Below are positions 5,353 to 62,951 of a DNA stretch of 64,000 nt, piece after piece. A model generated the notes under the pieces. The model saw only the letters and a program-made list of their open reading frames with translations. It was not told the origin of the DNA and searched no databases. The stretch is from assembly GCA_965261085.1 (NCBI GenBank), contig OZ253442.1, positions 2,880,001 to 2,944,000 of the forward strand, in the 5' to 3' direction. The stretch comes from a bacterium. GTDB taxonomy: Bacteria; UBA8248. The stretch's first letter is position 1. Each line of letters starts with the position of its first letter. The translations under genes and the position numbers were made by a program.

Positions 5353-5571
5353 TAGCGTCAATTCTCCTCTTGACTTGAGATGTGCACGAACGGTGAAATT
5401 CACCTGCTACAGAAGAATTTCACAGGTTGCAAGGCGATGCTTAGTTTGATAAGCAATTATTAAGGCTGCGGCCGGCGCGGCCAACTTCAGTTTTCTGGAA
5501 ATGTACTTGGAGTGAAAGGCCCTCACCTGATTCATCTCTACCCATTTCCAAAATTTGCAGGAGATGCGCAA

Positions 5572-5787
5572 GTGCCAGAAGGAACAGTGAAGTGGTTCAA
5601 TGACGCGAAGGGCTATGGTTTCATTTCGCAAACGGATGGTGACGATGTCTTCGTTCACTTCTCCGCCATCCAGGGAGACGGCTTCAAAACCCTGGAGGAA
5701 GGACAAAACGTGAACTTCGAAATTGTTCAGGGCCCGAAAGGGCTCCAAGCGGCCAACGTAACAAAAGGGGGTGACTCCGGAGAATAA
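5572..5787 (+). CDS. cspA: Cold-shock protein
   Basis: [35 protein letters not shown]; GTG start after AGGAG. Confidence 0.95.
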
Positions 5788-5807
5788 CCCTCATCCAGAG
5801 AAAACCC

Positions 5808-5840
5808 AAAACGACGGCTCACCCGGGCCGTCGTTTTTTT
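5808..5840 (+). terminator. Intrinsic terminator after csp gene
   Basis: AAAACGACGGCTC-accc-GGGCCGTCGTTTTTTT. Confidence 0.85.
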
Positions 5841-5943
5841 GTCTGCCGATATACCTCTCCCCTGCTTGCGGGGGGGTCGAACCCCCATGTTATAACCCCA
5901 TCAGTAGCGAATCCAATAGATCGACAATACAGAAAGGCATTTC

Positions 5944-7047
5944 ATGCGCGACGTTATCATCGTCGGTGGCGGCATCATGGGACTCCTGACAGCGAGAGAA
6001 CTCCGCAAAGCGGGCAGGAGCGTCACCATCATCGAAAAAGGCCGGCCCGGCGCAGGCGCCACCTGGGCTTCCGCGGGCATCATCTCCGCCCACGGGACGA
6101 GCGGCTCCGCCGATATTGCCGGTCTGCCGGGTCTCAGGCTCCGGACCGCCTCTTACGATGAATGGCCTCATCTCGCGCAAGCCATTGCCGAGGAAAGCGG
6201 AACGGACCTCGAATACCGCCTCACGGGCGTTTTGCTCATTGCCCTGGATAAAGAGGAAGCGGAATCCATTCAGGAAAAGGCCCGCGCGCGCGAATGGGGC
6301 GAGGCCAAGTGGATGCCGCCAGGCGTGCTGAGAAACGAAGAACCTTGCCTTTCGGATGAATTGGCGGGAGCGCTGCTCGTCACGGGCGGGAACCTGGAAG
6401 TCAGAAAACTGGGGCCCGCGCTCGAGATCGCCTGCAGGCGGCTTGGGGTGGAGATCCTCACCGGTTGCGCGGTGGAGGAGATACTGAGCCAGGGAGGAAA
6501 GGTCACCGGCGTCCGCACGGATGCCGGAGTTCACGAGGCGTCCGCCGTCTTCATCTGCGCAGGGATAGGCAGCCGCAGCGTGCCCGGCTCCGCTCCGCGA
6601 GCGCCCATCACCCCCCAGCGCGGGCAGATGCTCTCCATGGACGCACGCGCGCTGGGCCTTAAGCGCGTGGTGCTGACCGCGAACGACCCCTACCTCGTGC
6701 CCCGCGCCGATGGCCGCGTTCTGCTGGGCGCGACGAGGGAATACGCCGGCGAGGACCCGAGGCTCACCGTGGGCGGGCTCTCCTGGCTGCTGAGCGAGGG
6801 AATCCGCATCTCCCCTGAACTCGCCGCCTGCGCCATCGAGGAGACCTGGAGCGGCTTCAGGCCCACCTCCTCGGACTACCTGCCCCTCATCGGCCAGGGC
6901 GCGCTGGAAGGCCTCTACTTCTGCACCGGGCACGGGCCTTCGGGCATCGGGCCTGCGCCGGCGAGCGTGAGCCTGGCGACGGCGCTCTATCTGGGCGACG
7001 CCCCCTCGATCGACCCGGCGCCGTATGACCCCATGCGCTTCGCGTAG
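5944..7047 (+). CDS. FAD-dependent glycine oxidase ThiO-like / DAAO-family oxidoreductase
   Basis: IVGGGIMG, ATWASAGII, PQRGQM, YLVPRADGRVLLGAT, WSGFRP, TGHG. Confidence 0.85.
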   Translation: MRDVIIVGGGIMGLLTARELRKAGRSVTIIEKGRPGAGATWASAGIISAHGTSGSADIAGLPGLRLRTASYDEWPHLAQAIAEESGTDLEYRLTGVLLIALDKEEAESIQEKARAREWGEAKWMPPGVLRNEEPCLSDELAGALLVTGGNLEVRKLGPALEIACRRLGVEILTGCAVEEILSQGGKVTGVRTDAGVHEASAVFICAGIGSRSVPGSAPRAPITPQRGQMLSMDARALGLKRVVLTANDPYLVPRADGRVLLGATREYAGEDPRLTVGGLSWLLSEGIRISPELAACAIEETWSGFRPTSSDYLPLIGQGALEGLYFCTGHGPSGIGPAPASVSLATALYLGDAPSIDPAPYDPMRFA

Positions 7048-51832: not shown

Positions 51833-51907
51833 GGCCCCTTCGTCTAGCGGTCAGGACACCGGCCTCTCACGCCGGTAACAGGGGTTCGAGTCCCCTAGGG
51901 GTCACCA
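51833..51907 (+). tRNA. tRNA-Glu (anticodon CTC)
   Basis: Acceptor GGCCCCT/GGGGTC+ACCA; anticodon arm CCGGC-CTCTCAC-GCCGG; T arm AGGGGTTCGAGTCCCCT. Confidence 0.96.
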
Positions 51908-54546: not shown

Positions 54547-54822
54547 GTCAATTTCGGACCCAACTCACCTACATAGCAGCCCTTTTCGGGCAGCCGCAAC
54601 GAGGCGTATTCCTTGCGGGATTGCGCGTGAACTTTATGTCAATCCGCAAGCTGTTTACGACCTCCCAGAGCCGTCGATCGGGATGGTCGAGATGTTGCCG
54701 CCTTAAATGGATGAGGTTGCGCCGGGAGGTAGTGTTGTTTTCCCCCTAAGGTCCGATCTCCATCCATACCTTGCGCGCCACACTCCTTGACCAGGAAGGC
54801 GCTCGCAAAAGGGGGAAAGGAA

Positions 54823-57006
54823 ATGAACAAAAATAGACTGCGAATCTCGATTATCGTTCTTCTGGTGGCCGTGGCCGTCGCCTCCTTCGGTTGCGGCGGT
54901 GGCTCCGGCGCCAACCCGGCGGCAGGCGGCGATTTCATCACTGCCGTGGTGCCGGGCGCAGGCTCGACGTCCGGCAGTGAAAGCAAAAACCCTAGCCCTG
55001 GTGATCCGCCATCGAATGGAGACGGGGGAAGAGGGTCCGGCAGCCCCACCCACTCGACGTCTCTTGGCGGAGGAAACGGGCCCGGCAGTTCGACGCAAAA
55101 TACTCAAATCGAGAAAGAACCACCCCCTATCGGCTTTCAGTTAACAGATGATTTTCAGGAAGAAAATTATCCTCTGCCTTGGGAGCATGGCCTCTTCGAG
55201 GGCCGGATTGTATTGTTTGCCGGCAAATCAGAAAAGCATGGCAACTTGTTAATTACGTGTCCTTCGGGCCGCAAGGCATGCATCTTAAACGTCGGCTCTG
55301 ACGGCTCGTTGTCCTACGCAGTAAGCAACGGCCTGCCCAGCTTTACGCTTATCCCAACCGAGGGATTTCCAGACATCCCGTTGCCGCAGCCCAACGAAGC
55401 GGCGCAGGCGCCTGTTGTCGAACTCGATTTTGGAAGCACCCTGCACGTGGGGTCCAACGTCGCGCCTCGGGCCGACGAGTTGACCACAGGTGTCGACCGC
55501 AACGGAGTGTCCGTTTCATACGGACAGGTTCGGGACGGCATCGGGGCGAACGAAGTCCTCGAATTTATGAATTTACACGTTAGTCTTGAAGATAAGATTA
55601 CCCATGGTGGTGTGGGAGGCGCCCCGGGTCTCGAAACGTTTCCCGAACCGCCGACCATCCGCCTCGCCGAGGGAACCAGCGATTCATACGCCCGGTTTAC
55701 GGCGCACGCCGTTCAGTTGATCAACAACGCCTTGCCCTATGAGAAGCGCATCACAATCAGCCCGGAGGCTTTGCCGATAGATACGGAATTAGGTGACCTC
55801 TCGGAGGGAGAGATTTTTCTCAATTTCGGTTCGCTCGCATCACGCACGCTAGGGGGCGCCAAACTTTTAAGCAGTTACAATGAAAATCAAGAAGAAGTTC
55901 AAAAGGCATTAAAAGCCCTTGTCACTATAAATGAACATCAAATGCGTAAGGCCTTTGTGTATGACCCCCCGCCGGACCCGGTTGAGAATACGCCGGAAAA
56001 CTGGGAAACTATTTTAGAGGAATATTGGGGTTCAAAATATCCGGATAGCCGGGTTGAGAATTCAGACACGATCATCAAATTTTACAACGACAGGATATTC
56101 CTTTCAGTCGTTGTTCATGAAATCATGCATGCCCTCGGCTTTTATCATACCGACGAAACTAGAAATACTAAATCAGTCATGCATCCCATTGTAAACGAGG
56201 GCCAAGTAAACGTACCTTCACCTTACTTGCCCGAGAACTCGCTCGTTATCATAATCCCCTTGCAGATTGTTAACCTGACTGACGAGGAAACAACTGTGCC
56301 CGTGCTCGAGGCAACAACAGCTCAACTTGCACTCGAGGCGACAACAGATCAGCCCGAACGCAATTCGCCGGGCCGCCTCGCCACAGCAGATGCTCGATCC
56401 GTACCCGGGCATAACCTGTTTCCTCTCGACAGGGCGGCCCTGCTGGCGGCCTACGGCAGGATCGATCCGGGCACTCAGCCGGATGAACTGACGGCGGAAA
56501 ACCTGGGCGCCTGGACCGACAGGTCGTTTCACCTGCGTGGGGATGTGGATTTTCCGGGCGGACAGGCTACTTTCGGCGTCGCCTCTAGCAACGGCCTGAT
56601 CCAGCCCTGGGCATCGGGCCCGACGCCTTGGACGAACCTGGCGGATAATCGGGTGTTGCCGGGAAGCGCTACCTGGAACGGCGCGCTCCTGGGCATCACT
56701 TCTTCATTGGAAACGGTCGCAGGCGACGCCCGCCTCTTCGTGCGGTTGAGGAACCTGAATGGGCGAATCGACTTCACCGGCCTGGAGAAATGGGGGGTGA
56801 ACGAGGCGCCGGGAGAGGCCGGTAGCGGTACGACGTGGGACGATGGCGATCTGGGATACACAATCGAGGTTCGCGGCAATACATTCATCCAGACCGGCGG
56901 AGACGACGGCAAGGTAACCGGCGCGTTCTTCGGCGTCGCTCACGAGGCGATGGGCGGCGTACTCGAACGCGCCGACCTGGCGGCGGGCTTCGGCGGGAAG
57001 CGATAA
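54823..57006 (+). CDS. Lipoprotein with metzincin zinc-protease motif and TbpB-like C-terminal barrel
   Basis: Lipobox SFGC, G/S/P linker, HEIMHALGFYH with Met-turn SVMHP, C-terminal ATWNG...VTGAFFG...MGG...GFGGKR. Confidence 0.7.
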   Translation: MNKNRLRISIIVLLVAVAVASFGCGGGSGANPAAGGDFITAVVPGAGSTSGSESKNPSPGDPPSNGDGGRGSGSPTHSTSLGGGNGPGSSTQNTQIEKEPPPIGFQLTDDFQEENYPLPWEHGLFEGRIVLFAGKSEKHGNLLITCPSGRKACILNVGSDGSLSYAVSNGLPSFTLIPTEGFPDIPLPQPNEAAQAPVVELDFGSTLHVGSNVAPRADELTTGVDRNGVSVSYGQVRDGIGANEVLEFMNLHVSLEDKITHGGVGGAPGLETFPEPPTIRLAEGTSDSYARFTAHAVQLINNALPYEKRITISPEALPIDTELGDLSEGEIFLNFGSLASRTLGGAKLLSSYNENQEEVQKALKALVTINEHQMRKAFVYDPPPDPVENTPENWETILEEYWGSKYPDSRVENSDTIIKFYNDRIFLSVVVHEIMHALGFYHTDETRNTKSVMHPIVNEGQVNVPSPYLPENSLVIIIPLQIVNLTDEETTVPVLEATTAQLALEATTDQPERNSPGRLATADARSVPGHNLFPLDRAALLAAYGRIDPGTQPDELTAENLGAWTDRSFHLRGDVDFPGGQATFGVASSNGLIQPWASGPTPWTNLADNRVLPGSATWNGALLGITSSLETVAGDARLFVRLRNLNGRIDFTGLEKWGVNEAPGEAGSGTTWDDGDLGYTIEVRGNTFIQTGGDDGKVTGAFFGVAHEAMGGVLERADLAAGFGGKR

Positions 57007-58186: not shown

Positions 58187-58645
58187 CTAGATGCTCACCT
58201 GGAAATTGGGCAGGCGAACGCCGCCTCCCGCATCGACAGGCGCCGCGCTCAACTCATCGAGCGTGGTCTCGCGCAGCGTCTCGTCTATGGCGTCTTCGAG
58301 TTTCTTCCACAGGGTGCGGCTCCCGCACACCGGAATGTTCGGACACGGCGACGAGGGCGGCGCCTCGCCGCAATCGACGGGCTTTATCGTCTCCCCCACC
58401 GCGCAGAAAACGTCGCGCATGTTAATTTCAGAGGGCGGCAGCGCCAGAATGTAGCCGCCTCCCGGCCCCCTCGTGCTGCTCACCAGAGAAGCCCTGCGCA
58501 TTTTCACGAACAACTGCTCCAGATAGTGCTGGCTGATACCGAGCTTGCCGGCTATCTGGGGCAAGGGGACGGGATGCGTCTGAGAATGCCGTGCCAACTC
58601 TATCATGGCGAGCACGGCGTATCGTCCTTTGGTCGATATCTTCAT
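58187..58645 (-). CDS. Rrf2-family transcriptional regulator (IscR/CymR-like)
   Basis: MKISTKGRYA, YLEQLF, STRGPGGGY, three Cys (C-x8-C-x5-C). Confidence 0.92.
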   Translation of the reverse strand: MKISTKGRYAVLAMIELARHSQTHPVPLPQIAGKLGISQHYLEQLFVKMRRASLVSSTRGPGGGYILALPPSEINMRDVFCAVGETIKPVDCGEAPPSSPCPNIPVCGSRTLWKKLEDAIDETLRETTLDELSAAPVDAGGGVRLPNFQVSI

Positions 58646-58676
58646 CGGCGGCATCCTTTCATCAAGCGACTCGACA

Positions 58677-59492
58677 TCATGGCCAAGCGAGCACTCCCCG
58701 CCGCACGGGGATTTTCGTTTGCCCGCGCGCAGCGAGCGCGCAGACGGGACAATCCGGGTTCTGGGCCACACGCACGCTCCCGACGGCGTTTTTCCAGAAA
58801 TCAGCCGTCATCAGCCTGTTCGACCAGGCGGGCTCAAGCCCCTGGAGAACACGCAGCGCATCGGCGGCCTGCGCCATGCCCACGAAACCCGCCACCGCTC
58901 CGAAAACGCCCGCATCCCCGCAATCGAGGCCGCGCGCGTTTGCGCCCTCCTCTCCCACGAGGCAGCGCAGACACGCGCTCTTACCGGGCAGAATCGTCAG
59001 AACCTGGCCGAAAAACCGTAAAACGCCCCCCATCACCCACGGCTTGTTCGATGCGGCGCAGGCGTCGTTCAGGGCCATTTTGGACTCGATATTATCGCTT
59101 CCATCGATGATGACGTCGTAAGGCGCGATGATTCGGGCGGCATTCCCGCGCGTGAGTTTTTGGGGAATCTTATCCACAGCTACCTTGGCGGATAGCCTGA
59201 AAATGGAATCAGCACCCGAGTCCACCTTCAGGCGGCCGATGTCCTCGCCTCGGTGGAGAATCTGGCGGGCCAGGTTGTCGAGCGACACCACGTCGTGATC
59301 CGCAAGCCCGATGCGCGCAACGCCCGCCGCCGCAAGGGCGAGCGCGGCGGGACAGCCCAGGCCGCCGACCCCCACGATGAGGACGGACGAGCCCGCCAGG
59401 GCGCATTTCTCGCTCTTGGGTGCCGTGGATGCGCTTGCGGACGCCCCCGGCGCTGCACCGGGCAGCCCCGCGTGAGGAGTATGAAGGCTCAT
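58677..59492 (-). CDS. MoeB/ThiF E1-like adenylyltransferase, catalytic-type subunit lacking the N-terminal RYSR segment
   Basis: GVGGLG, DHDVVSLDNLARQ, K, DGSDN, CLRC, C..AGV, CPVC. Confidence 0.88.
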   Translation of the reverse strand: MSLHTPHAGLPGAAPGASASASTAPKSEKCALAGSSVLIVGVGGLGCPAALALAAAGVARIGLADHDVVSLDNLARQILHRGEDIGRLKVDSGADSIFRLSAKVAVDKIPQKLTRGNAARIIAPYDVIIDGSDNIESKMALNDACAASNKPWVMGGVLRFFGQVLTILPGKSACLRCLVGEEGANARGLDCGDAGVFGAVAGFVGMAQAADALRVLQGLEPAWSNRLMTADFWKNAVGSVRVAQNPDCPVCALAARGQTKIPVRRGVLAWP

Positions 59493-59983
59493 GCGCCCGC
59501 CTCCTCGAATATCTCCAGATCGCTTTCAACGAAAGTCTTTTGCTCCGCATCCCAGTAATACACCTTCTGGCCGAGTACGACGCCCGCGCGCACGCTCATG
59601 ACGACGTGCCCCGCATCCGGGAACGCCGGGATATCGCCGAAAGGAACCGCCGCATCCACGTCTTCCTGTGAAAAATAGGCGTCCTCATCCGGGTGGCTGT
59701 GAAAGATGCCGCGAACCACCTCGCCCGCCTCCTCGGCCCGCCTCACGATGCGCTCGAACTCGAAGGGATCGATCAGAAAAGCGCGCCGCGCCGTTCGGGG
59801 ATAGATTTCCGGGTCTTTCTCGTGCATCTCGTTCTGCACGTTTTTACAGGGCGAAAGGGCGAAAGTTTCTTCTTTATCCCCTTGCGCAGGCGGGGGGCCG
59901 ATAATCAACCCGCAGCACTCATCGGGATACGCCTCGCGCGCGTGGCGGTGCATCGCCTCCACCTGATCACGATTCAGACGCAA
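59489..59983 (-). CDS. mec: JAB/JAMM (M67) metallopeptidase, Mec-like
   Basis: YPDECCG...FHSHPDEDAYFSQED. Confidence 0.88.
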   Translation of the reverse strand: MRLNRDQVEAMHRHAREAYPDECCGLIIGPPPAQGDKEETFALSPCKNVQNEMHEKDPEIYPRTARRAFLIDPFEFERIVRRAEEAGEVVRGIFHSHPDEDAYFSQEDVDAAVPFGDIPAFPDAGHVVMSVRAGVVLGQKVYYWDAEQKTFVESDLEIFEEAGA

Positions 59984-59994
59984 ATCAAGCCTCC

Positions 59995-60933
59995 CTAGCG
60001 CGCTTCGCTCAAGTACCTGTCTCCCCCGTCGGGAAACAGGGTGACGATGACGCCCTTTCCTATCCGCTTCGCCACCTCCCGCACGCCCACGAGCGCAGCC
60101 CCCGCCGAGTGGCCGATGAAAAGGCCCTCTTCTTTCGCTATGCGCTCGGCCAGGTCGTAGCTCTCCTCGGTGTCCGCCAGAATCAGGTGATCGTGCACGC
60201 TCTCATCGTAAATCCCCGGGCGAATGGCCGTGGGGATGTGCTTCATGCCCTCCAGGCCGTGAAACGATTCTGAGGGCATGACGGCATGAACCTGAACGTC
60301 TGGCTTCCTCGCCTGGAGGCCGCGCCCCGTCCCCACGAGGGTGCCCGTCGTGCCGAGGCCCGCTACGAAGTGCTCCACGCGCCCGTCGGTCTGCTCCAGA
60401 ATCTCGACCGCCGTGGTCTCCACGTGGGCGAGCGGGTTGGCGGGGTTGTCGTACTGACAGGGCAGGAAATATTTTTCCGGCTCGTCGCGGCGCATCTTCG
60501 CCGCGAGGCGCTGCGCCCCGTCCGAACCCTCCAGGGGGTCCGAGAGAACGATGTCGGCCCCGTAGCCCTTGAGCGTCGCCTTGCGCTCATCGCTCGCGTT
60601 CGCAGGCAGGACGAGGCGGACGGGAATCCCGAGCGCAGCGCCGATCATGGCGTAGGCGATGCCGGTGTTCCCGCTCGTGGAATCGAGAAGAATTTTCCCG
60701 GGGCGCAAATCTCCCGATTCCAGGCCGTCCTTCACCATGAAGAGCGCGGGCCTGTCCTTCACCGAACCGCCCGGATTGAACCACTCCGCCTTGGCGTAGA
60801 CTTCCACGTCCGGGAATTCGCTCTCGAACAACTTGATTTCGAGCAAGGGGGTGTTGCCGATGCACCTGATGATTGAGGAATCCCCTAAATTCCTGAACGC
60901 GCTCGCGGGATTCTCCACCGTCGATTCGACCAT
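59995..60933 (-). CDS. cysM: Cysteine synthase (CysM-like)
   Basis: IGNTPL, KAEWFNPGGSVKDRPA, TSGNTG, QYDNPAN, GLGTTGT, PDGGDRYLS. Confidence 0.88.
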   Translation of the reverse strand: MVESTVENPASAFRNLGDSSIIRCIGNTPLLEIKLFESEFPDVEVYAKAEWFNPGGSVKDRPALFMVKDGLESGDLRPGKILLDSTSGNTGIAYAMIGAALGIPVRLVLPANASDERKATLKGYGADIVLSDPLEGSDGAQRLAAKMRRDEPEKYFLPCQYDNPANPLAHVETTAVEILEQTDGRVEHFVAGLGTTGTLVGTGRGLQARKPDVQVHAVMPSESFHGLEGMKHIPTAIRPGIYDESVHDHLILADTEESYDLAERIAKEEGLFIGHSAGAALVGVREVAKRIGKGVIVTLFPDGGDRYLSEAR

Positions 60934-60966
60934 TGATATGGCCCTCGCACTTGGTTCCTGAAAATT

Positions 60967-61626
60967 TCAGGAAAGGTTCGCACGCGCTTCGATGAAGCCA
61001 TGCGAAAGATCGAAACGGGCCTGCGAAGTCGACCCCACCGTATCCATTCCATCCACAAGATACCGTAATACCCTGGCGGCCAGCCATGCGCCCAAAGCTC
61101 CCTGAGTCGCCATCGATGGCGAATCCCCTCCAGTAGAGGTTACGCCCGGCTTCCCGAAAACACCGGGGCCTTCGAGAATTTCACCCGCCTCATCACGGCT
61201 CGCGCCTCGTATGACGAATTTCCCCGTAGATTTGAGAGCCTCGTAATCTCTCGTGGACTCATCGCCCAGCCGGACGAGGACATCGAAATCCTCCCCCACT
61301 CCCTCGCCCGGTCGACAGGAAACCAGCCTGGAATCGGGATTGAGGCTCCTTAAGCCATCCCCCAGAGAAATACCTAAAAACGAGGAGAGCGGAGATTCTC
61401 CCCCCTGCCCGTCTCCCCCGCCGGCTTCATCTAACGGACACCAGCCGATGCGGCCCACGCCCGCAGCGGAAAGATAGGTCAGGGCCACGAGGGCGGCGTT
61501 CTCCTCACTCTTAGAAAACGCGAGGAGGACGGAGGACGCGAGCAGGCGCTCCTGCCCGACACCTCCCACGCCTGGGAGAAGAATGTGGCGGCTGTAGCGC
61601 TGAATCTGCTCTTCGCTCAAGCCCAA
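60967..61626 (-). CDS. Degenerate MoeB/ThiF-like protein (inactive adenylation domain)
   Basis: Keeps QRYSRHILLPGVGGVGQERLL, YLSAAGVGRIG, LNPD, GALGAWLA; lacks GxGxxG, NLxRQ and both CxxC. Confidence 0.75.
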   Translation of the reverse strand: MGLSEEQIQRYSRHILLPGVGGVGQERLLASSVLLAFSKSEENAALVALTYLSAAGVGRIGWCPLDEAGGGDGQGGESPLSSFLGISLGDGLRSLNPDSRLVSCRPGEGVGEDFDVLVRLGDESTRDYEALKSTGKFVIRGASRDEAGEILEGPGVFGKPGVTSTGGDSPSMATQGALGAWLAARVLRYLVDGMDTVGSTSQARFDLSHGFIEARANLS

Positions 61627-61657
61627 GGAGCGGTTCTCCTCTCAGCAGGACCGGGGA

Positions 61658-61939
61658 TCAGTACAGGCCGCCCGCGATGGCCGGCACGATGGAGACCTCA
61701 TCCCCATCGCTCACCGCCGTCCCCTCGCCTTGCAGGAAGCGGATGTCCTCCTGGTTGACATAAATGTTCACGAAGCGGCGCAGTTTGCCCTCCTCGTCAT
61801 ACAGGCGCTGGCCGATGCCCGCGAACTGGTTGTCGAGGTTTGCGAGCACTTCCTTGACGTCCGCGCCCGCGATCTCCACGGCGTCCTGCTGCTGGGTGAA
61901 CTCCTGTAAAGGTGTCGGAATACGAACCGTTACCGCCAT
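61658..61939 (-). CDS. MoaD/ThiS ubiquitin-like sulfur carrier (CysO-like) with C-terminal GG-LY extension
   Basis: MAVTVRIPTPL, RRFVNIYVNQEDIRFL, DGDEVSIVPAIAGG-LY-stop; AGGAG RBS. Confidence 0.92.
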   Translation of the reverse strand: MAVTVRIPTPLQEFTQQQDAVEIAGADVKEVLANLDNQFAGIGQRLYDEEGKLRRFVNIYVNQEDIRFLQGEGTAVSDGDEVSIVPAIAGGLY

Positions 61940-61991
61940 TTCTGTCTCCTGATCTGAAACCCCTCGCTTCGGGGTGGACGAAATAAGGTTT

Positions 61992-62951
61992 CTAATGAAA
62001 TTGCTGCTCCAGACTATAATATCTCTCCCATCCATCGGGAATCACGACCACCACGTTTTTCTCAGGACCCATCCGGGCGGCCGCGCGCAGGGCCGCGCAA
62101 ACGGCTGCGCCCGCCGAGATGCCTGCGGCCATGCCCTCCTCCCGGCTCAGGGCCTTGCTCATGTCGTAGGCGTCTGAATCGCTCACCTGCGCCACCTCGT
62201 CAATAACCGCCCGGTTCAACACCGCAGGGATGAAACCCGCGCCGATTCCCTGTATCTGGTGCGGACCCGGCTCCCCGCCCGAGAGAACGGGGGATGCGGC
62301 GGGCTCCACGCCGACGATGAGGGTTTCGGGCCTTCTCTCCTTCAAGACCTCGCCCACTCCCGTGATGGTGCCCCCCGTCCCCACGCCCGCCACGAAGGCG
62401 TCCACCGATTCCGCTCCCATATCGCGCAAAATCTCGCGCGCCGTGGTTCTGCGGTGGATTTCCGGGTTGGCCGGGTTGTTGAACTGCTGGGGCATGAAAT
62501 AGTCTGGATTTTCGGCCAATATGGCTTCCGCCATCACGAGGGAGCCGTACATGCCGCCCTCGCTCGAACTGAAGACCACCTCCGCCCCGTAGCCCGTGAG
62601 CAGAGAGTGCCGCTCGTGGCTCATGCTCTTACTGAGCACGATGATGGTCCTGTAGCCGCGAATGGCGCCGATGAGCGCCAAGCCTATCCCCGTGTTGCCG
62701 CTGGTGGGTTCGATGATCGTTCCGCCGGGCTTTAAGAGTCCACGCCGCTCGCCGTCGAGCACCATGCTGAGCGCGATGCGGTCCTTCACGCTTCCGCCGG
62801 GATTATATTGCTCGAGCTTGGCGAACACGCGCGCGCCGGATGCGTCGGGCAGGCGTTGCAGTTGGACGAGGCTCGTGCCCCCGATGCGATCGATGAGCGA
62901 GGGAAGCGCTCTCAGAATCTGGGGCGGACGACCCCGTGTGCCCAATGCCAT
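61992..62951 (-). CDS. cysK: Cysteine synthase A
   Basis: KLEQYNPGGSVKDRIA, EPTSGNTGIG, QQFNNPANP, GVGTGGT, HQIQGIGAGFIP. Confidence 0.92.
   Translation of the reverse strand: MALGTRGRPPQILRALPSLIDRIGGTSLVQLQRLPDASGARVFAKLEQYNPGGSVKDRIALSMVLDGERRGLLKPGGTIIEPTSGNTGIGLALIGAIRGYRTIIVLSKSMSHERHSLLTGYGAEVVFSSSEGGMYGSLVMAEAILAENPDYFMPQQFNNPANPEIHRRTTAREILRDMGAESVDAFVAGVGTGGTITGVGEVLKERRPETLIVGVEPAASPVLSGGEPGPHQIQGIGAGFIPAVLNRAVIDEVAQVSDSDAYDMSKALSREEGMAAGISAGAAVCAALRAAARMGPEKNVVVVIPDGWERYYSLEQQFH

Follow-up and report, generated by a model that had tools for sequence, protein, structure and literature searches.

The adenylyltransferases of the Escherichia coli MoeB-MoaD and ThiF-ThiS systems are homodimers with two active sites in which each subunit carries an N-terminal RYSR motif, and the N-terminus of ThiF is reported to complete the active site of the other monomer (PMC12596934). 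In a stretch of 64,000 nucleotides from a bacterium of the GTDB lineage UBA8248 (assembly GCA_965261085.1, contig OZ253442.1, positions 2,880,001 to 2,944,000; hereafter the window), these roles are split over two genes of one sulfur-assimilation operon so that only one active site is possible. Protein B has the same domain, the same motifs and the same zinc site as MoeB and ThiF but has lost the RYSR segment, whereas protein A has the same fold and has kept the RYSR segment but has lost the catalytic motifs. The reading that we favour as the most likely one is that A and B form a heterodimeric E1 that has a single active site.

An inactive/active two-subunit arrangement is otherwise known mainly from eukaryotic E1s. 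In NAE1(APPBP1)-UBA3 and in SAE1-SAE2, an inactive subunit of adenylation fold gives one arginine to the active ATP site (APPBP1 Arg15; PMC6031683); unlike these enzymes, A and B lack a catalytic-cysteine domain, a ubiquitin-fold domain and an E2, and the pathway in which they would act is one of sulfur transfer. The bacterial E1 BilD of the BilABCD antiviral ubiquitination system is built as a pseudo-dimer of two adenylation domains, one inactive and one active, with Arg9 supplied by the inactive one, but BilD is described as one polypeptide with an inserted CYS domain that acts with an E2 in phage defence (PMC10557695), whereas A and B are encoded separately within an operon for metabolism. 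In yeast Tcd1-Tcd2, the tRNA ct6A dehydratase, the inactive Tcd1, which is needed for the stability of the active subunit, lends an Arg59 finger; this system differs in being eukaryotic, in its tRNA substrate, in the long C-terminal domains on both subunits and in that its finger is reported as dispensable (R59A) (PMC13139853).

The neighbourhood of a ubiquitin-like protein (Ubl), a cysteine synthase, a JAB protease and an E1-like protein is shared with the CysO-CysM-Mec+/MoeZR system of Mycobacterium tuberculosis and with operon type 4c (PMC1779556, PMC3227635), the latter catalogued in 2006 by Iyer et al. as row 4c (PMC1779556). Type 4c is listed with a single-chain E1 that carries a fused rhodanese domain. 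The operon of the window differs in lacking a rhodanese domain, in having two E1-like genes, of which one is catalytically dead, and in a Ubl that continues past its Gly-Gly. A preliminary description, made from the letters of the window, had spoken of an undescribed system, which is too broad a claim because the operon type is catalogued (PMC1779556) and a fused inactive/active BilD is known (PMC10557695). Novelty appears to be confined to the building of a sulfur-carrier E1 from two genes, both the operon class and an arginine-donating inactive fold being known already. The literature searched yielded no account of a bacterial MoeB-type E1 made of an inactive and an active subunit from two genes, although older E1-superfamily surveys may mention such paralogues, and the word heterodimer does not occur in a 2025 review of ThiF-like enzymes (PMC12596934).

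Two E1-like proteins with complementary motif loss

When B was scanned against Pfam, ThiF (PF00899) matched residues 31-250 with an E-value of 1.2e-62, the alignment beginning only at profile position 17, and the best NCBIfam score was 210.9 bits against a cut-off of 449 bits, no equivalog cut-off being reached. B is a minimal domain of 271 amino acids without an inserted catalytic-cysteine domain. In an alignment of B and 20 orthologues (21 B sequences) with 16 canonical MoeBs it is evident that B keeps G41xG43xxG46, D65, N73-L74-A-R76-Q77, K89, D130-G-S-D133-N134, C174xxC177, C191 and C248xxC251; G41, G43, G46, D65, N73, L74, R76, Q77, K89, D130, D133, C177 and C191 are invariant, and N134, C174, C248 and C251 reach at least 90% conservation. 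The segment QIxRYSRHILLxxVG of about 22 residues, present in 16/16 canonical MoeBs, is found in 0/21 B orthologues. In its place stands a tail rich in Ala, Ser and Pro which is variable, being absent or shortened in 6/21 orthologues. A frameshift or an alternative start that would supply RYSR to B, the former raised in the preliminary description, was ruled out in 21/21 loci, as no RY[S]R[HQ]-like motif occurs in any frame from 300 nucleotides upstream of the B start to 120 nucleotides inside the gene and a frameshift therefore cannot restore the segment. The DNA just upstream of the B start is coding sequence for the C-terminus of JAB.

For A, the Pfam scan gave no match, and the NCBIfam models for MoeB, ThiF, UbaA and MoeZ aligned to residues 3-67 only, with scores far under their cut-offs. 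A has FSKSEEN at the GxGxxG position and has lost NLxRQ, DxxDN, both CxxC pairs and the catalytic cysteine; in the alignment, none of GxGxxG, NLxRQ, DxxDN or CxxC is found in A or its 46 relatives. What A retains is the N-terminal segment, an AAGVGRIG strand, LNPD, the long C-terminal helix (QGALGAWLAARVL) and RFD..G. Among these 47 sequences R10, Y11, S12 and H14 are invariant and R13, which aligns with the second arginine of the canonical RYSR, is 98% conserved. An AlphaFold2 model of A has the E1 fold, with a mean predicted local distance difference test score (pLDDT) of 67.3 and a predicted template modelling score (pTM) of 0.74. In a Foldseek search with this model the top PDB matches were Uba4, ThiF and MoeB (E 1.7e-9 to 6e-7, TM about 0.6), and the inactive subunits SAE1 and APPBP1 of the eukaryotic enzymes named above were also matched. 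Judged by its motifs, A is a degenerate relative of these enzymes and not a functional adenylyltransferase. Both open reading frames lie on the minus strand (A, 60967-61626; B, 58677-59492), and the complementary motif loss between them, as pointed out in the preliminary description, is real and conserved according to Pfam, NCBIfam and the alignments.

The ratio of nonsynonymous to synonymous substitutions (dN/dS) was obtained by the Nei-Gojobori method within the genus, from 19 sequences (171 pairs), two family-level loci being left out. For A the overall value was 0.34, with 0.083 for residues 1-38, 0.21 for residues 39-66, 0.46 for residues 67-170 and 0.31 for residues 171-219. B gave 0.23 as a whole and 0.175 for its core, while its N-terminal tail, at 0.84, was near neutral; values for the neighbouring genes were 0.078 for CysK, 0.089 for CysM and 0.12 for JAB. 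From these values, A is under purifying selection which is concentrated on the very arm that B has lost, and neutral evolution of A, which the preliminary description had considered, does not describe this gene. A mirror-tree analysis was also carried out, in which the residual correlations of pairwise distances were 0.23 for A-B, 0.10 for A-JAB and 0.08 for B-JAB; as evidence for coevolution of A and B it was discarded, the correlations being weak and hard to separate from shared phylogeny.

One complex was modelled, in which B (37-row alignment) was given together with ATP and A (47 rows) was the scored partner, in three runs and with three controls. The interface score ipSAE for A:B was 0.91 in each of the 3 runs, and the best of the 3 controls reached 0.00; in the calibration of the tool, the mark set for ipSAE is reached by 58/80 solved complexes and by 2/110 mismatched pairs. 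The runs share at least 96% of their contacts, and the pLDDT of the partner is at least 77. On the side of A the predicted interface includes residues 6, 9-14 (QRYSRH), 16-18 and 20, and on the side of B residues 71-72, 74-76 (L-A-R of NLARQ) and 78, and helix A171-188 is predicted to pack on B199-214. In the model the RYSRH of A is thus placed against the NLARQ/ATP-phosphate site of B, and the predicted interface uses the N-terminal segment and the long helix after the crossover region, which is what the MoeB/ThiF family would lead one to expect. Residues of the predicted interface are more conserved than the rest in both proteins (A, 0.80 versus 0.66; B, 0.90 versus 0.78), a comparison among related sequences which is descriptive only. 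The modelled geometry is that expected if A stands in for the second subunit of a MoeB-type dimer, and the model supports binding of A to B without demonstrating it.

The operon and its distribution

Seven tightly packed genes on the minus strand (58187-62951) form the operon in the order cysK-Ubl-A-cysM-JAB-B-rrf2. Gene families were assigned with Pfam and NCBIfam; the host genome is a single contig of 4.27 Mb, and the source names given for homologues put the host in the Nitrospinota. The features are as follows (aa, amino acids).

61992..62951 (-), cysK-type O-acetylserine sulfhydrylase, 319 aa, operon gene 1; PALP PF00291, E 4.9e-77
61658..61939 (-), Ubl, sulfur carrier of the ThiS/MoaD/SAMP type, about 93 aa from MAVTV; ThiS PF02597, E 4.7e-17
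60967..61626 (-), A, MoeB/ThiF paralogue that has degenerated catalytically, 219 aa, start codon TTG; assigned from motif loss and E1 fold; putative non-catalytic E1 subunit
61513..61626 (-), residues 1-38 of A, N-terminal QIQRYSRHILLPGVGG.GQERLL segment holding R10 and R13; lowest dN/dS in A
59995..60933 (-), cysM-type cysteine synthase, 312 aa; PALP, E 1.4e-64
59489..59983 (-), JAB/JAMM metallopeptidase, Mec+/desampylase-like, 164 aa; Prok-JAB PF14464, E 3.9e-20
58677..59492 (-), B, active-type ThiF/MoeB adenylyltransferase, 271 aa; PF00899, E 1.2e-62; putative catalytic E1 subunit
59403..59492 (-), residues 1-30 of B, variable low-complexity A/S/P tail in place of the RYSR segment; dN/dS 0.84
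58187..58654 (-), Rrf2-family (IscR/CymR-like) regulator, last gene; Rrf2 PF02082, E 1.4e-35

Intergenic gaps are between 11 and about 52 nucleotides, and JAB and B overlap by 4 nucleotides (ATGA). The first gene exceeds the TIGR01139 cysK cut-off (396 bits, cut-off 351 bits), the cysM-type gene stays under that of TIGR01138 cysM (345 bits, cut-off 394 bits), and the rrf2 gene exceeds the TIGR00738 cut-off with 123 bits. For two genes the listed open reading frame is longer than the probable gene: that of Ubl extends to 62035, with the PF02597 match beginning at its residue 37 and the real start at MAVTV, and that of rrf2 extends to 58771, with the PF02082 match from residue 45 and a probable start near 58645-58654. 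The TTG start of A, with its Shine-Dalgarno sequence, is kept in 19/21 loci, and in the window this start is preceded by GAGAGGAGA. In the window Ubl ends in AIAGG-LY, that is Gly-Gly followed by two residues, and its orthologues end in GGL, GGLY or GGR (loci including L019, L021, L023, L024, L032 and L036); with residues past its Gly-Gly, Ubl must be trimmed before activation, and a JAB gene is present in the Nitrospinota operon. Open frames of 386-427 amino acids had suggested a JAB-B fusion, which was ruled out because the JAB and B matches lie in different frames in 18/20 loci; in L034 there is a stop between JAB and B, and in L025 both lie in one frame. No E2-like gene is found among the seven operon genes, and an Rfam scan of the 64-kb window gave no riboswitch near the operon. 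By predicted gene content the operon matches the parts list of a CysO-type cysteine pathway, with a Gly-Gly Ubl, a CysM-type synthase, a JAB protease and an E1. Contigs from metatranscriptome libraries of two studies span parts of A and bridge the Ubl-A and A-cysM junctions, which is compatible with transcription of A without proving it.

In order to see how the two genes are distributed, 40 related genomes, 22 of the same genus and 2 of the same family, were searched with A and B separately. Full-length A orthologues were detected in 20/22 genus genomes (58-84% identity) and in 2/2 family genomes (42-43%), B orthologues in 19/22 and 2/2, and both together in 21/24 related Nitrospinota genomes (19/22 and 2/2). 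Concerning the exceptions, G001 and G007 have neither A nor B and only an open frame of 414-484 amino acids with a canonical MoeB match, and in G005 A lies on a contig of 3.2 kb that ends ahead of B. A RYSR-less B without A occurs in 0/41 genomes, so that the case of relatives keeping such a B in the absence of A, which the preliminary description had envisaged, was not encountered. No interruption of the A reading frame was met in any genome examined, a sample that covers at least three families and identities down to 38-45%. In the NCBI records of Nitrospinota A is labelled 'hypothetical protein', and several relatives carry the label 'adenylyltransferase' despite having no nucleotide site.

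The order cysK-Ubl-A-cysM-JAB-B-rrf2 is the same across the 20 fetched loci, of which L037 ends inside A. The position of cysK is the same in 19/20 related loci, L037 stopping short of cysK, and cysM, JAB and rrf2 were each found in 20/20. A split form is present in G025, from the same order but another family, with cysK-Ubl-A and cysM-JAB-B on two short contigs. In four outgroup genomes, cysK-Ubl is followed at the position of A by a single MoeB of full length (266-273 amino acids) that carries RYSR. Genome G006 (contigs C6 and C8) holds two complete copies of the operon, with A 84% and 73% identical to that of the window; its contamination estimate is 16%, and the two copies may represent two strains binned together.

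Among the weaker matches to A were four proteins of about 216-220 amino acids which had kept RYSRQ and lost GxGxxG. A genome scan with these four revealed 80 loci with an A-like protein (A') of about 215 amino acids showing the same combination, most of them titled as metagenome-assembled genomes of Candidatus Binataceae, Binatus or 'delta proteobacterium'. A B-like ThiF protein (B') lies within 6 kb of A' in 67/80 of these Binatota loci. No RYSR-like motif is found upstream in frame of B' in the 64 of these 67 loci that were checked, the remaining 3 having alignments that start at residue 60-63 and so falling outside the motif check; several B' open reading frames start directly at strand 1 (e.g. 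L046:2426-3142). Two gene contexts are typical, in which the neighbours were named by eye from their translations and were not library-scanned. In one the order is B', ThrC-like, Ubl (GGR), cysM, small open reading frame, A', HAD, sulfite reductase-like; in the other B' is directly followed by A' and then by HAD, APS kinase-like and sulfate adenylyltransferase-like frames. The Ubl at L046:4472-4750 ends in GGR, and no JAB match is found in the 80 Binatota loci. Neighbours of B' and A' (L046:2857-4398 and 5750-5976; L054:7403-9123) include a threonine-synthase-like pyridoxal-phosphate enzyme with an N-terminal Cys-rich motif. These neighbours suggest that the sulfur carrier may also feed homocysteine/methionine synthesis.

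A maximum-likelihood tree, from which N-terminal columns were excluded and which was rooted on the host genome's own rhodanese-MoeB, places the Nitrospinota and Binatota B proteins in one clade (support 96/97) that falls inside the canonical MoeBs. The topology agrees with the arm having been lost once in B and the gene then passed between phyla. As B is nested within bacterial MoeBs, the likeness of the pair to eukaryotic E1s would most simply be a parallel and not a sign of shared ancestry.

When a profile of A and A' was run against 1.84 billion cluster representatives (clusters at 50% identity), 9952 matches were obtained at E<=0.001 and 69 at E<=1e-30. Among the best 150 of the 9952 matches, 126 keep RYSR and are without GxGxxG, NLxRQ and DxxDN, and a further 18 keep RYSR and are without NLxRQ and DxxDN, giving at least 144 representatives of the A type; 2 are canonical, and 4 have no RYSR in their first 70 residues. 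On these profile matches the degenerate partner makes up a family of considerable size, most of it unannotated. There is also a third group, closer to MoeB and about 220-245 amino acids long (P0202, P0220, P0238, P0250 and P0262), which keeps RYSRQ and two CxxC pairs and triggers PF00899, but is without NLxRQ/DxxDN; one relative of this group is from Candidatus Binatia.

The proposed two-subunit E1 and its rivals

Starting from the observed motif pattern, fold, selection, co-occurrence and operon, and taking the contact between A and B from the model and the chemistry from analogy, the following course of events can be proposed. A would dock on B by way of the interface normally used in MoeB/ThiF dimers and lay its RYSRH arm at the NLARQ/ATP-phosphate site of B. 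The E1 so formed would be asymmetric, with a single active site. A homodimer would take the arm from its second, identical subunit, and B no longer has one of its own. JAB would remove Leu-Tyr from Ubl and expose Gly-Gly, and B, as the catalytic subunit with its ATP/Mg site, zinc site and conserved cysteine, would adenylate this C-terminal Gly-Gly. The CysO/CysM/Mec+ pathway of Mycobacterium tuberculosis is the model for the chemistry proposed here. By analogy with it, activated Ubl would be converted to a thiocarboxylate by means of a sulfur donor, CysM would form a Ubl-cysteine adduct from the thiocarboxylate, and JAB would then free the cysteine. An argument from decay can be added: once the ATP site of one subunit is dead, the arm of the other subunit serves nothing and can decay, while the arm of the dead subunit stays useful. 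Such a course would fit exactly the pattern seen in two phyla.

Several points weigh against a heterodimeric E1 of this kind. The custom alignments and the ATP ligand depart from the tool calibration behind the figures of 58/80 and 2/110, the A:B score may come from solved structures of MoeB/ThiF dimers and of E1 heterodimers that the model has learnt, and the ipSAE of 0.91 covers A:B alone and implies no preference of A:B over B:B or A:A. One cluster of A proteins (P0056, 22 member sequences) reads RYSHH and so has a histidine at the presumed finger position. The fingers MoeB Arg14 and ThiF Arg11 are reported as non-essential, and E. coli TcdA is reported to have none (2026; PMC13139853); likewise, APPBP1-R15A only slows NEDD8 activation (PMC6031683). 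Since the finger is reported to be non-essential in MoeB and ThiF, B might work without A, and the importance of A may lie more in its structural support of B than in what it donates to catalysis. In 13/80 Binatota loci A' is not adjacent to B'; several of these 13 end just upstream of A', and in 5/5 tested cases, one of them the unpublished genome G042, a RYSR-less B' (56-63% identity to the L046 protein) is located elsewhere in the genome. The branches of A and A' are 3.1 and 2.0 changes per site long, and the two were not joined in the careful tree and were grouped in 11% of bootstrap trees, so that on these long branches A has no firm place in the tree. The RNA-library contigs come from related strains (92-99% identity) and may include DNA carry-over. 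Finally, according to Pfam and NCBIfam the seven genes of the operon encode no rhodanese or other sulfurtransferase. The preliminary description had proposed an obligate asymmetric E1. Asymmetry is favoured by a complex model that passes its controls, by the position of RYSRH at the ATP-phosphate motif of B and by the finding of the same pair in Binatota, whereas the word obligate goes unsupported in view of the non-essential fingers of MoeB and ThiF, the merely slower APPBP1-R15A and the histidine of P0056.

The rival that survives best, although we regard it as unlikely, is that B is a self-sufficient homodimer tolerating the loss of the finger and that A, a pseudoenzyme, plays some accessory part elsewhere than at the active site of B, for instance as a scaffold for Ubl or CysM, as a stabiliser of B or by titrating B into less active heterodimers. 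The activity that UBA3 is reported to retain with APPBP1-R15A (PMC6031683) and the histidine at the finger position in P0056 would agree with such a role. However, the RYSR segment is the most constrained part of A (dN/dS 0.083) and the model sets precisely this segment at NLARQ of B, A and B co-occur strictly, and the loss of the arm in 21 Nitrospinota B proteins, 64 in-locus B' and 5 off-locus B' is easiest explained by a partner without an ATP site.

It is distinctly improbable that A:B activates Ubl chiefly for a SAMP/Urm1-like protein conjugation, reversed by JAB, instead of or besides cysteine biosynthesis. In favour of conjugation, the best NCBIfam matches of Ubl are SAMP1 and Urm1-like and the only NCBIfam match of JAB is desampylase, all under cut-off (SAMP1 and MoaD_arch models likewise scored below their cut-offs on Ubl), and B retains the conserved Cys191. 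On the other hand, two cysteine synthases and an IscR/CymR-like Rrf2 regulator are fixed in the operon in 20/20 loci, the Binatota versions lie amid sulfate-assimilation genes (as named by eye), and the operon genes include no E2-like gene.

That A is a functionless, decaying remnant of an ancestral in-operon MoeB made redundant by the arrival of a cysM-JAB-B module would agree with its occupying the position of the full-length MoeB of the outgroups, with its 58-84% identity within the genus as compared to 87-98% for CysK and CysM and with the relaxed middle of the protein (dN/dS 0.46), but this is very improbable indeed and largely refuted by the selection data (dN/dS 0.34 overall, 0.083 at the N-terminus), and it is at odds with a frame that stays open in three or more families and at identities as low as 38-45%, with the TTG and Shine-Dalgarno sequence kept in 19/21 loci and with the existence of a comparable Binatota family and of 144 or more representatives of clusters at 50% identity.

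To return to the heterodimeric E1, a more far-reaching form of it, to which we would give somewhat less than an even chance, is that an obligate two-subunit E1 for sulfur-carrier activation exists in at least two phyla (Nitrospinota, Binatota and probably more), A being kept only to dimerise and to donate the RYSR arm which B has discarded, and that it is an independent bacterial invention of the split between inactive and active subunits which defines the eukaryotic NEDD8 and SUMO E1s, an invention which spread by gene transfer and arose in metabolism before any link with protein conjugation. E1 enzymes are thought to derive from homodimeric ancestors of the MoeB/ThiF type by duplication and subsequent inactivation of one half. 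If A and B form such an enzyme, the intermediate step of this history would survive today in a widespread bacterial E1 with one dead and one live gene product, working in a simple route of sulfur transfer. As the arm would be naturally separated from the catalytic body, its contribution to catalysis or to stability could be tested directly, and the small size of the two subunits suits them to biochemistry and crystallography. The annotation of these sulfur-assimilation operons should change.

Other genes of the genome and the window

The host genome contains further ThiF-domain proteins. Its rhodanese-MoeB (L013) keeps RYSR, and three further ThiF-domain genes lie outside the window on contig 1 of the host genome G000 (2405931-2406668, 1745290-1745811 and 2450468-2450863; L015-L017), in open frames of 400-507 amino acids with unrelated N-terminal parts. 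In the 64-kb window Rfam detected no RNA family beyond a cspA thermoregulator at 5483-5839 (+), with 84 bits against a gathering score of 78, and one tRNA at 51833-51904 (+). An open reading frame of 739 amino acids at 54787-57006 (+) has a signal-peptide-like start and the motif HEIMHALGFYH (HExxHxxGxxH, metzincin-type). The GC content at 55500-56500 is 0.51-0.52 as compared to 0.60-0.65 in neighbouring genes, and this DNA may have been acquired.

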